This document shows, in pieces, positions 3,547-40,217 of a stretch of DNA of 40,217 nt. Location of the stretch: positions 1 through 40,217 of the forward strand of contig JAJZRC010000004.1 in NCBI GenBank assembly GCA_021847435.1, given 5' to 3'. The stretch comes from a bacterium. GTDB lineage: Bacteria; Patescibacteriota; Doudnabacteria; UBA920. The notes beneath the pieces are model-generated. The model was given only the letters and a program-made list of their open reading frames with translations, was not told where the DNA came from and made no database searches. Both the position numbers and the translations under genes were made by a program. Numbering within the stretch: the stretch's first letter is position 1; every line of letters begins with the position of its first letter.

Positions 3547-3762
3547 TAGGACTTACGCACCGCCGCTTTTTGGGCGGGCAGAGCCCACCCCATAAAAAGC
3601 GGCTCCGGCCAATTTCTTCGTTATTTTCCTGCGGTTTTTATCGGCGTAACCCGGCTACGCCTCCAAAAATCCCTGCCTGCCGGCAGGCAGGCTCGGAAAA
3701 TGCCCTCGCCTCGCTGAAGCTCCGGCGAAGCGGGTCGAACTTGGCTCAGTGCGAAAGTCCTA
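3547..3762 (+). mobile_element. MITE family A, copy A1 (216 bp, carries both micro-palindrome inserts)
   Basis: TAGGACTTACGCA...TGCGAAAGTCCTA ends; AAAGG duplicated at 3542-3546 and 3763-3767. Confidence 0.9.
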
Positions 3763-9816: not shown

Positions 9817-9990
9817 TTTATTAGCGGCGTAGAGCGAGTAAAAGAGTCCTTAAGGACTCTTTTACGAGCCTGAGCCTGCCTGCCCCTGCCGGCAGGGAGC
9901 TGATACAGGTTCAATACCTCGGAGCTCTGCTCCGAAATGACAGATGTCTTTTGCGGTAATACCTCGTCAGCTTGCTGTGAGGAACCTTTA
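9817..9990. mobile_element. Family B hairpin element, copy B1 (right end interrupted by MITE A2)
   Basis: TTTATT-AGCGGCGTAGAGCG...GAGGAACC-TTTA; the terminal TTTATT is completed at 10208-10213 once A2 is removed. Confidence 0.8.
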
Positions 9991-10206
9991 TAGGACTTAC
10001 GCACCGCCGCTTTTTTAGACTGGCAAAGCCAGTTCCCAAAAAGCGGCTCCGGCCAATTTCTTCGTTATTTTCCTGCGGTTTTTATCGGCGTAACCCGGCT
10101 ACGCCTCCAAAAATCCCTGCCTGCCGGCAGGCAGGCTCGGAAAATGCCCTCGTCTCGCTGAAGCTCCGGCGAAGCGGGTTGAACTTGGCTCAGTGCGTAA
10201 GTCCTA
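9991..10206 (+). mobile_element. MITE family A, copy A2 (216 bp)
   Basis: Perfect TAGGACTTACGCAC/GTGCGTAAGTCCTA ends; CTTTA duplicated at 9986-9990 and 10207-10211. Confidence 0.92.
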
Positions 10207-11473: not shown

Positions 11474-11647
11474 TTTATTAGCGGCGTAGAGCGAGCAAAA
11501 GAGTCCTTAAGGACTCTTTTACGAGCCTGAGCCTGCCTGCCTGCCGGCAGGGAGCTGATACAGGTTCAATACCTCGGAGCTCTGCTCCGAAATGACAGAT
11601 GTCTCTTGCGGTAATACCTCGCCAGCTTGCCGCGAGGAACCTTTATT
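11474..11647. mobile_element. Family B hairpin element, copy B2
   Basis: Near-identical to B1 and B3; TTTATT at 11474-11479 and 11642-11647. Confidence 0.82.
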
Positions 11648-12139: not shown

Positions 12140-12313
12140 TTTATTAGCGGCGTAGAGCGAGCAAAAGAGTCCTTAAGGACTCTTTTGCGAGCCTGAGCAT
12201 CCCTGCCGGCAGGCAGGGAGCTAATACAGGTTCAACACCTCGGAGCTCTGTACCGAAATGACAGATGTCTCTTGCGGTAATACCTCGTCAGCTTGCTGCG
12301 AGGAACCTTTATT
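12140..12313. mobile_element. Family B hairpin element, copy B3
   Basis: TTTATT at 12140-12145 and 12308-12313; same internal palindromes as B1 and B2. Confidence 0.82.
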
Positions 12314-15702: not shown

Positions 15703-15866
15703 TAGGACTTATGCTCTTGCCGCTCTAGACCCGGCGGAGCCGGGTCCGCAAGCGGCTTTGGCCAATTTCTTCGTTATTTTCCTGCGGTTTTTATCGGCGT
15801 AACCCGGCTACGCCTCCAAAAATCCTCGGAAAATGCCTCAAATTTGGCTCAAAAGCGTAAGTCCTA
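15703..15866 (+). mobile_element. MITE family A, copy A3 (164 bp, no inserts)
   Basis: TAGGACTTATGCT...AGCGTAAGTCCTA; TTTAT duplicated at 15698-15702 and 15867-15871. Confidence 0.9.
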
Positions 15867-17832: not shown

Positions 17833-17927
17833 TAGGACTTACGCACTGAGCCAAGTTCGAGGCATTTTCCGAGGATTTTTGGAGGCGTAGCTCTGCCCGC
17901 CCAAAAAGCGGCGGTGCGTAAGTCCTA
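17833..17927 (-). mobile_element. MITE family A, copy A4 (95 bp, internally deleted), in the typA 5' UTR
   Basis: Perfect 14-bp TIRs; TTTTT on both sides; left arm matches A1. Confidence 0.88.
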
Positions 17928-36000: not shown

Positions 36001-36369
36001 TCGCCGATAATAATCAACTTCGCGGCAGCCGGCCCGAAATTTTTTGTAATCAGCCCAGGCGATTTTATAGATCTGCCCATTCAGGCCGGGCAAAATCGCT
36101 TGGGGAAGGACGGGATGATTATTGGCGCGAGCGAGGCTGAAATGATGATCCGGGAAAAACTGTTTGAAAAACCGGGCGACAGTTTGTCTGATTTTTTCGG
36201 CGTCCCCAATATGAAAATAGTCGGCATATTAAAATCTACGGGAACCTTCCTGGACAATACCCATATTATTAAAGGCGAAACTCAAGTCGCGTCTGCGGCG
36301 GAAGGTTTCGCCAAAATGAACGGCGCAGAATTGAAATTATTAGGACTTACGCTTTTGAGCCAAGTTTGA
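33007..36369 (+). CDS. copA: Cu(I)-translocating P1B-ATPase with a C-terminal extension, 3'-truncated by MITE A5
   Basis: Two HMA domains (GMHCESC, GMHCASC), TGES, CPC, DKTGT, SEHP, GDGIND, YN and MALSS. The last ~9 codons derive from the MITE. Confidence 0.93.
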
Positions 36370-36504
36370 GGCATTTTCCGAGGATTTTTGGAGGCGTAGC
36401 CAGGCTACGCCAATAAAAACCGCAGGAAAATAACGAAAAAATTGGCCAAAGCCGCTTGCTGACCCGGCTTTGCCGGGTCTAAAGCGGCAAGAGCGTAAGT
36501 CCTA
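36341..36504 (-). mobile_element. MITE family A, copy A5 (164 bp), inserted in copA
   Basis: TIRs; ATTAT duplicated at 36336-36340 and 36505-36509; removal restores the frame. Confidence 0.93.
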
Positions 36505-36778: not shown

Positions 36779-36945
36779 AGCGGCGTAGAGCGAGTAAAAG
36801 AGTCCTTAAGGACTCTTTTACGAGCCTGAGCCTGCCTGCCAGGCAGGGAGCTGATACAGGTTCGAATATCTCGCAGCTCTGCTGCGAAATGCAGTCAACT
36901 CCTTGGGTTCAATGCCTCGGAGTTCTACCCCGAGGCGCCTTTATT
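36773..36945. mobile_element. Family B hairpin element, copy B4 (diverged right half)
   Basis: TTTATT at 36773-36778 and 36940-36945; left half is essentially identical to B1. Confidence 0.8.
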
Positions 36946-37079: not shown

Positions 37080-37273
37080 TAGGACTTACGCATTTGGCCA
37101 AGTTCGAGGCATTCTGCGAGCCTGCCTGCCGGCAGGCAGGGATGTTTCGAGCCGTGGTGAAACTACGGCGAGAAAGACCGCAGTAAAATAACGAAGAAAT
37201 AGGCCAAACTTAAGCGCAGCTGCCCTAAAATTCGGGCTTTGCCCGATTTTGGACAGCAAGTGCGTAAGTCCTA
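37080..37273 (-). mobile_element. MITE family A, diverged copy A6 (194 bp)
   Basis: Perfect 13-bp TIRs; AATTA duplicated at 37075-37079 and 37274-37278; 20-bp palindrome at 37121-37140. Confidence 0.9.
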
Positions 37274-40090: not shown

Positions 40091-40217
40091 TAGGACTTAC
40101 GCTCTTGCCGCTTTAGACCCGGCAAAGCCGGGTCAGCAAGCGGCTTTGGCCAATTTTTTCGTTATTTTCCTGCGGTTTTTATCGGCGTAGCCTGGCTACG
40201 CCTCCAAAAATCCTCGG
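40091..40217 (+). mobile_element. MITE family A, copy A7, truncated by the window end
   Basis: Starts TAGGACTTACGCT; matches the reverse complement of A5 with one difference over 127 nt. Confidence 0.9.

Follow-up and report, generated by a model that had tools for sequence, protein, structure and literature searches.

Does a bare 20-bp palindrome insert as a unit of its own into the repeat elements of this genome, or does its patchy presence follow from the spread of those elements? The question arises from the window analyzed here, a stretch of 40,217 nt that represents contig C16 of assembly G000 (1,008,292 bp in 65 contigs, 47.6% G+C) and in which Rfam identified two transfer RNAs (tRNAs) and no other RNA family. 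Two repeat elements, A and B, are found in this window. Element A is a foldback miniature inverted-repeat transposable element (MITE) of 164 to 216 bp, with the terminal inverted repeat (TIR) TAGGACTTACGC and ends TAGGACTTACGC...GCGTAAGTCCTA, and some of its copies carry the palindrome CCTGCCTGCCGGCAGGCAGG (termed P); other modules and hairpins were designated H, X, and R. P was found to be inserted as a block, without target duplication, at many unrelated places, and its exact sequence is common to many phyla and viral contigs. We consider it reasonably probable that P is a self-contained, noncoding 20-nt hairpin element that inserts and spreads by the scheme proposed below.

Filled and empty P sites in the window

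The A elements of the window, with their P copies and H hairpins, were located as follows.

3547..3762, + strand: MITE A1, carries P and H; TIR TAGGACTTACGC../..GCGAAAGTCCTA; 5-bp target duplication AAAGG
3672..3691, no strand: P, perfect 20-bp palindrome, in A1; exact match
3705..3734, + strand: H, 30-nt imperfect hairpin of A1 (fold -6.5 kcal/mol); second copy at 10149-10178 in A2
9991..10206, + strand: MITE A2, bears both P and H and interrupts the final few bases of B1; duplicated target CTTTA
10116..10135, no strand: P in A2; exact match
15703..15866, + strand: MITE A3, without P or H (both sites empty); duplicated target TTTAT
17833..17927, - strand: MITE A4, internally deleted, 95 nt, without P or H (both sites empty); duplicated target TTTTT
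36341..36504, - strand: MITE A5, without P or H (both sites empty); duplicated target ATTAT
37080..37273, - strand: MITE A6, of a diverged subfamily, with P but without H; duplicated target AATTA
37121..37140, no strand: P in the diverged A6, same junction, host element in opposite orientation; exact match
40091..40217, + strand: MITE A7, runs off the end of the window, with an empty P site

A 5-bp target duplication was thus found at all six complete A copies. Three exact P copies were detected where none was expected (100 shuffles), and three further matches with two mismatches were all located in B elements. An earlier reading of this DNA from its letters alone (the sequence-only reading) had placed P at a single junction in A1, A2, and A6 and had described it as cleanly absent from A3, A4, A5, and A7. 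Both statements were borne out by the exact matches and their flanks: the filled junction reads ..AAAAATC^P^CTCGG.., and in the four P-less copies nothing lies between AAAAATC and CTCGG. The difference between filled and empty copies is exactly 20 nt, with neither duplication nor scar, and the P/A junction slides by one base at most (G/C). P consists of two abutted 10-nt arms that represent the same 10-mer on each strand, and as single-stranded DNA it is predicted to fold into an 8-bp stem with a CCGG loop (-8.0 kcal/mol); in the predicted single-strand fold of A1, P and H form side branches off the long foldback. The further description of a nest, with the hairpin in MITE A and MITE A in element B, proved only loosely right, as A2 sits within the last few bases at the extreme end of B1 and has its own 5-bp duplication.

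Modules and backbone tree of the A family

The A family was examined across G000 based on 70 blastn segments, which grouped into 51 clusters; five of these were removed (three that matched only via P and two that were secondary), and 46 were aligned. P was present in 9 of the 40 A copies with a covered P site and H in 6 of 39, including a diverged copy without P, while a third optional module of 42 nt, X, was detected in three of 45 copies, all three outside the window. Seven of the eight P/H/X combinations were observed. H was not found outside A in G000, and H and X are so far just A-internal modules. Thus, the coordinates given for H in A1 and A2 by the sequence-only reading stood, but the exclusivity to these two copies did not.

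A maximum likelihood tree of the A backbone was constructed from 31 full copies with P, H, and X masked. The minimum number of changes on this tree was at least seven for P, five for H, and three for X. The tree was weakly resolved (17 of 26 inner branches open), and when the weak forks were collapsed about four changes remained for P, as counted by hand on the tree. Identical backbones were also found to carry different modules, with P and X in a copy on contig C19 and neither in the bare copy on C25; together with the tree changes, this upheld the view that the presence of P does not follow backbone relatedness. All nine P-bearing copies were identical at 20 of 20 positions of P. The A6-type backbone is ~82% like that of A1, and by our own arithmetic the chance that an unconstrained 20-mer stays unchanged at this divergence is ~0.01 to 0.02.

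These data also bear on an alternative without separate mobility, in which P originated once in an ancestral A element and its present pattern arose by subfamily spread, slippage deletion, and short-patch recombination. The poor resolution of a tree based on so short a backbone is compatible with this account, as is A2, which is mosaic-like in that its hairpin-1 tip is as in P-less copies and its right half as in A1. Furthermore, P-bearing A copies were detected in at least three species (G000, G002, and G006), and thus the polymorphism is old. Counter to this account, identical A backbones differ in two modules, and the microhomology flanking P is only 1 nt, which makes repeated identical deletions unlikely.

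Two further features of the family were noted. In the A copy at C28:9303-9581, the tip of hairpin 1 is reverse-complemented relative to the other A copies. In addition, the tips of hairpins 1 and 2 differ among A subfamilies by fully compensated changes (GGGCGGGC..GCCCGTCCC / ACTGGC..GCCAGT / CCGGC..GCCGG).

P beyond MITE A

Of the 11 exact P copies in G000, nine were located in A, one in a B element (C64), and one in a non-repeat context (C3). All four B copies of the window were found to have a CCTG/CAGG hairpin related to P at one fixed spot, with arms of 6, 7, 10, or 14 nt of the form CC(TGCC)n, as had been described from the letters alone. These P-type hairpins were located as follows.

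9875..9898, no strand: decayed, asymmetric P-type hairpin in B1 (CCTGCCTGCC CCTGCC GGCAGGG)
11532..11552, no strand: P-type hairpin in B2, arms of 14 and 6-7 nt
12202..12217, no strand: P-type hairpin in B3, arms of 6 and 10 nt
36831..36847, no strand: P-type hairpin in B4, without the central CCGG (CCTGCCTGCCAGGCAGG)

The arms in B differ in length by 4-nt steps, the pattern expected of slippage and a point in favor of the account without separate mobility. At position 11543 in B2, 3 nt of the CCTG arm were missing in contigs from three of four public sequencing runs, which represents a length polymorphism of a decayed hairpin.

The distribution of P was then examined in 41 genomes of the same order, with the P pattern read backwards as the control. 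Exact P was detected in 16 of the 41 genomes, at 1 to 16 copies each and under five of the six family labels, while the control was found in none. Of 97 counted P sites, 80 were examined and found to represent 53 unrelated flank contexts, which included other MITE families, spacers, tRNA-like fragments, and coding genes. In a topA gene P is in frame and reads LPAGRQ, and in a sugar-kinase gene it occupies the last codons. G002 has A copies both with and without P, and in an unrelated MITE family of the same genome (ends TGTCATCCCGA...TCGGAATGACA) the P site GGGATTC^CTCG is filled in some copies and empty in others; here too the difference is exactly 20 nt, and a second P site is present.

To cover a wider range, a public genome collection (596 Gb, one genome per species, flanks of ±150 nt) and the viral contigs of IMG/VR were scanned. 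At least 123 stretches with exact P were recovered from the genomes, spanning about ten phyla, with flanks that were all different; by our own arithmetic about one occurrence of any given 20-mer is expected by chance in 596 Gb. Based on record titles, in which the labels of metagenome-assembled genomes (MAGs) may be imprecise, the matches listed included (i) many classes of the candidate phyla radiation (CPR), Omnitrophota, Bacteroidota (several of them cultured isolates), Planctomycetota, and Verrucomicrobia; and (ii) Gamma- and 'delta'-proteobacteria, Bdellovibrionales, Thermodesulfovibrionales, Thermodesulfobacteriota, Chloroflexi, Ignavibacteria, and Elusimicrobia. A cultured Chitinophagaceae isolate (G043, 7.3 Mb) was found to have 42 copies within one mismatch, of which 29 were exact and 13 had one mismatch, with nine of these 13 varying at positions 7 to 13, the central loop letters. 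Four other public genomes had six copies (a 4.4-Mb chromosome), three, three, and one. IMG/VR yielded 40 stretches with P, and a single 29.5-kb viral contig with phage-like structural genes had seven copies within one mismatch; in phage-like contigs P was located in intergenic spacers. At locus L117, P was found in a real coding context. Within the searchable literature, no paper was found to contain the 20-mer or its inner 18-mer.

Two candidate observations were set aside during this survey. The apparent occurrence of P at one position in homologs from two classes (L117 and L121) was rejected, as the similarity was carried by P itself. Similarly, open frames that run across P were not taken as evidence of coding, since such frames are frequent in GC-rich flanks anyway. 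It was also noted that P often occurs inside or beside degenerate tandem arrays of 6- to 9-nt units (TTCAGCG/TTCTGCG/TTTTGCG and GGTGAGA/GGTTAGA), as at L202, L207, L211, and L215 of G043 and at L125, L133, L144, and L273.

With P in 53 contexts, 16 genomes, and many phyla, it is not confined to the elements of the window as the product of one gain followed by deletions. The account without separate mobility fails for these contexts, as it does for the other phyla, viral contigs, tRNA fragments, coding genes, and a P located within another P (below); as a full account it is refuted by the order-wide contexts and the cross-phylum spread, and we judge it unlikely overall. Instead, the copies in B and non-repeat DNA, the 53 contexts, the many phyla, the seven or more changes on the tree, and the identical backbones that differ in P lead us to regard P as a separately inserting unit. 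The proposal of a separate mechanism that inserts 20- to 30-nt hairpins is accordingly retained for P, based on contexts, phyla, and tree, but not for H, which occurs only in A.

The same survey is relevant to a functional role for P, in which selection would keep an operator, a partition-type protein-binding palindrome, or a terminator or stability hairpin letter-perfect and the site would have been acquired with horizontally moving DNA. Exact conservation of 20 letters across phyla amid differing flanks would be expected of such a site, and the intergenic positions in phage-like contigs, the clustering of the one-mismatch variants of G043 in the central loop, and the terminator-like GATTTTT that follows P in one orientation of A are in line with it. 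However, P was found in just 16 of the 41 order relatives at 1 to 16 copies, and thus is not essential; most copies reside in selfish repeats or tRNA scars, and the flanks are not generally T-rich. Nor would a binding site enter unrelated elements at GAG^GA as one clean block of 20 nt, and an insertion mechanism would be needed in any case. We therefore find this explanation distinctly unlikely. An artefact (an adapter, a linker, or an assembly chimera) is extremely unlikely: palindromic linkers do occur in some library types, as a matter of general knowledge, but P occupies one internal junction in nine A copies and recurs within the same MITE family in the assemblies of other species, unrelated projects have recovered it from isolates and from a complete chromosome, and it is in frame within conserved genes.

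Landing sites of P

Within the order, P was followed by GA on exactly one side in 27 of the 53 contexts and on both sides in none, and was preceded by GAG in nine half-sites. The sequence GAG^GA was found to be the P site in A, in B, and in the MITE of G002. For the global matches, flank statistics were calculated from the 162 distinct P sites (324 half-sites) among the matches listed, 123 of which are genome sites. Here, the neighboring bases were not random: the first base outward from P was A in only 29 of 324 half-sites, and the two bases that flank P were A..T at 33 of the 123 genome sites and G..G or C..C at another 33. Hairpin contexts were also favored, as the flanks were able to pair over at least 5 bp at 25 of the 162 sites, compared with a mean of 6.6 and a maximum of 15 in 200 shuffled pairings. 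P was also located at the exact center of another P (L092 and L116) and of other palindromes (L154), within hairpin loops (L083, L093, and L142), and at junctions in the D, T, or anticodon loop of incomplete tRNA copies adjacent to intact tRNA genes. That P interrupts whole tRNA genes was considered and rejected, as in silico removal of P restored no tRNA at any of four tRNA-like loci.

Contigs assembled from public runs (Logan) were found to break at the repeats (e.g., 3575/3724 and 9845/10123), with none bridging a P site, and were thus uninformative on presence or absence in the population.

Small GIY-YIG genes beside P

Small GIY-YIG genes (PF01541) numbered 1 to 15 per genome. To identify those near P, all open reading frames (ORFs) in 255 P-bearing loci, most of them limited to ±150 nt and some duplicated, were scanned by phmmer. 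A GIY-YIG ORF was found to adjoin P at eight distinct places, namely in G034, G002, G036, a 0.9-Mb WWE3 genome, a Thermodesulfobacteriota MAG, a gammaproteobacterial MAG, a Chitinophagales MAG, and a viral contig; by a rough estimate fewer than two such neighbors are expected by chance. P was located 17 to 100 nt upstream of the GIY-YIG start at seven of the eight places, usually in a tRNA 5' fragment with an intact tRNA after the gene, and the only small GIY-YIG gene of the WWE3 genome starts 20 nt after P. No P was seen downstream of the gene at L214, L002, or L053. The family matches of these genes were to Pfam GIY-YIG only, and NCBIfam assigned no family name to the three GIY-YIG proteins compared with it. 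The link between P and these genes is real but partial, because none of the 11 P copies of G000 or the 42 of G043 is near such a gene. A small, Ssn-like GIY-YIG single-strand nuclease is our tentative guess for the enzyme that moves P, possible and still short of probable.

Several related arrangements were observed. A layout of tRNA 5' fragment, small GIY-YIG gene, and intact tRNA recurs across phyla (L214:1479-1800, L257, L182, L053, and L022), often with P at the D-loop or anticodon-loop junction of the fragment. G043 has three tandem small GIY-YIG genes of 89 amino acids each, 341 bp apart (C11:46873-47761). In G000, a frameshifted GIY-YIG gene (C8:1334-1667) is bounded by inverted CGTCAT...ATGACG hairpin ends that resemble the SRM tag described below, with an R hairpin inserted in its right end, and a degenerate P-like 16-mer (CCTGACGGCAGGCAGG; C50:14345-14370) lies ~100 nt upstream of a tRNA-adjacent small GIY-YIG gene.

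HUH/Y1 genes

The sequence-only reading had named an HUH/Y1-like mechanism, or else slippage excision or conversion, and had suggested a search for Y1 genes of the RAYT type (REP-associated tyrosine transposases, where REP denotes repetitive extragenic palindromic sequences) or GIY-YIG genes flanked by the palindrome. No gene of either kind was found with P on both sides. Matches to HUH/Y1 (PF01797) were identified in 30 of the 41 order relatives, 14 of the 16 with P and 16 of the 25 without, and nine were in G000. Most of the G000 matches bear the RAYT-like motifs NHFH and YIHNNP, which are assigned to Y1 subclass 2.4 (subclass table, PMC6006769). Four RAYT-like genes of G000 could be read on both flanks (C14, C41, C51, and C62), and none was flanked by P; of the others, two (C57 and C11) are at contig ends and could be read on one flank only, and the gene on C55 is broken. 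The single Y1 of G043, the genome with 42 P copies, is of another subclass with a YIEKQEEHH-type motif and is preceded by heptamer repeats. The Y1 proposal was thus not supported, and an HUH/Y1 enzyme as the mover of P is a guess that we hold doubtful; some other enzyme is about as likely as this one and the GIY-YIG nuclease combined.

Two candidates from G036 were rejected. A RAYT gene 340 bp from P was considered a coincidence, with a tRNA and the hairpins of the RAYT itself in between. A 3.7-kb segment between two P copies was examined as an autonomous element and found to have housekeeping genes inside, with the P copies in two inverted MITE copies.

R mini-hairpins

A second hairpin, R, was defined as TCCGCC-N3-4-GGCGGA (15 to 16 nt), in which the 6-bp stem is constant and the loop can have any sequence. 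R was detected in 37 of the 41 order relatives at up to 95 copies per genome, while the control gave 0 to 2. G000 has 20 copies, some of them single and others paired as inverted doublets, which are perfect palindromes of 30 bp (e.g., C36:9024-9053, C38:2083-2112, C63:993-1022, and C63:43069), and none of them is in the window. Like P, R can be present or absent as an insert, as seen in B (C36) and in the MITE of G002, and it was found within 50 nt of P in several phyla. All nine order relatives with two or fewer R copies had three or fewer GIY-YIG matches, and 31 of the 32 with seven or more R copies had at least four; these contrasts occur within three families and are confounded by general repeat load and by the non-independence of relatives. 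Y1 counts do not track R, as G038 has 95 R copies and no Y1 match.

A broader scheme would join P and the much more abundant R as pan-bacterial 'nano-transposons', bare 15- to 20-nt hairpins that would be cut and pasted in single-stranded loops by small GIY-YIG (Ssn-like) nucleases, with the nuclease genes riding tRNA genes between phyla, partly on phages; we offer it as a speculation that is probably incorrect as a whole. Separately, many perfect palindromes of 30 to 47 bp were noted throughout G000, including one set with the same 20-bp core (TCCTTCACGGCCGTGAAGGA) in every copy and outer arms that vary among copies while staying fully symmetric, as if the core had been inserted at palindrome centers.

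Proposed insertion and spread of P

In the scheme that we favor, P would move as a single-stranded hairpin by means of an enzyme supplied in trans. Its targets would be single-stranded or hairpin-prone DNA, such as the loops of other hairpins, other repeats, and tRNA-gene fragments, with a preference for GAG^GA in this order. In the window, P may have entered MITE A at CCGAG^GATTTT, after which P-bearing and P-less A copies would have spread by ordinary transposition with 5-bp duplications, followed by later gain, loss, or patch conversion of P on near-identical backbones. The B elements would hold an older P at GAG^GAGCT, with CC(TGCC)n arms that have probably since slipped in 4-nt steps.

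A number of observations weigh against this reading of P as a mobile unit or against the enzymes considered for it. The pattern of the window, taken alone, could stem from subfamily spread and recombination. No orthologous chromosomal pair of filled and empty P sites was obtained among the relatives, because these are too distant; at the A1 locus, G007, G002, and G004 (in which both flanking genes aligned on one contig and were 70 to 77% identical) have no A element. The topA region with P is just one amino acid longer than that of G000, which fits replacement or compensation and not a clean gain of 20 nt. The GA preference was weak outside the order, at 33 of the 324 half-sites among the matches listed versus a background of 6.5%. 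With respect to the mover, (i) no gene was found to be bracketed by P, and G000 yielded no longer element that has P half-sites at its termini; (ii) the four RAYT-like genes of G000 and one in G036 are flanked by their own, different hairpins; (iii) P occurs in genomes without a Y1 match (G027, G028, G042, and G045); and (iv) most P copies are far from GIY-YIG genes.

The absence of a donor element or flanking gene among those searched also favors another origin, in which P would be made afresh at breaks, such as one cut by a nuclease in a hairpin loop, by the addition of CC(TGCC)n to both 3' ends, with fill-in and joining to give a palindrome without duplication. The halves of P are the same 10-mer on each strand, as this origin would yield; the arms of 6, 10, and 14 nt, unequal at one B site, agree with it, and the constant stems and variable loops of R fit junctional variation and not copying. 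Yet this origin is pure inference for which no candidate gene was found, and we know of no bacterial activity that adds CC(TGCC)n to break ends. The 20-mer greatly predominates (11 exact copies versus few variants in G000, and 29 exact copies in G043), and slippage by 4 nt is a simpler source of the arm variants. We consider synthesis at breaks very unlikely and retain the insertion of P as a hairpin element.

Relationship to known systems

The closest precedent appears to be that of the small dispersed repeats (SDRs) of Nostocaceae described by Elhai et al. in 2008, dispersed repeats of ~20 to 27 nt that are thought to be mobile and some of which reportedly form hairpins and lie nested in other repeats; the likeness is one of description. 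P shares the SDR traits of dispersed units of ~20 nt, block presence or absence, and nesting. In contrast to the Nostocaceae SDRs, P is a perfect palindrome and is found in about ten phyla as well as viral contigs. Excerpts from the papers that cite the SDR work describe these repeats as short mobile elements, with HIP1 as a possible SDR5 insertion site, and state that 'some 20 bp long ... might be mobile'.

With REP/REPIN-RAYT systems, P has in common the short, many-copy extragenic hairpins, the single-strand hairpin logic, the mosaic clustering that resembles bacterial interspersed mosaic elements (BIMEs), and the presence of RAYT-like genes in G000. P differs in that it is a perfect palindrome without a GTAG-type tag in the 53 contexts of the order and the 162 among the global matches listed, flanks no RAYT gene examined, and is also present in genomes without a Y1 match. 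REPs are considered lineage-specific, whereas P is common to many phyla. The IS200/IS605-derived palindrome-associated transposable elements (PATEs) integrate without duplicating the target, beside a short and specific sequence, and have two different subterminal hairpins. P likewise inserts without target duplication, but its GAG^GA target was seen in this order only and is weak globally, and P is a single symmetric 20-nt hairpin. Classical prokaryotic MITEs (Correia/NEMIS, ERIC) are the class to which the host element A belongs, with its TIRs, 5-bp duplications, and ~46 loci. P itself is unlike them, as it has no target duplication, is 5 to 10 times shorter, and has just two abutted 10-nt arms. 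The GC clusters of yeast mitochondria and the short palindromes of organelles are GC-rich mini-hairpins of 30 to 50 nt that invade AT-rich spacers and, less often, genes. They differ from P in being organellar and longer, and the likeness is by description only.

The Ssn GIY-YIG single-strand nucleases, which form the subfamily GIY-YIG_unchar_3 (cd10448), provide the nearest match for the genes found beside P. In the portions of Chenal et al. 2025 (PMC11893778) that concern these enzymes, the genes are flanked on both sides by SRM/NTS hairpin repeats of 20 to 50 nt; the SRM repeats are expanded in genomes and have a 5' GTC(A/T)Y tag, with the nucleotides flanking the palindrome of importance for binding and cutting. 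In the same portions, SsnA is shown to bind and cut single-stranded DNA, not to move repeats. P is alike in being a hairpin beside small single-domain GIY-YIG genes at the eight places, and unlike in being upstream only and in having no GTC(A/T)Y tag adjoining it.

Implications

If truly mobile, P would be among the smallest transposable units of any genome, 20 nt that form only a stem, and the first such unit known to us that keeps its exact sequence over about ten phyla and viral contigs. The cultured Bacteroidota with dozens of P copies offer a tractable system, which may yield a sequence-specific tool for single-stranded DNA as the Ssn nucleases have done. In-frame 20-nt palindromes in genes such as topA would represent insertions, a caution for annotation. 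Finally, the insertion of P would explain the mosaic MITE families of these ultra-small genomes and, if correct, would imply a widespread and previously unrecognized DNA-handling activity that acts on single-stranded hairpins.

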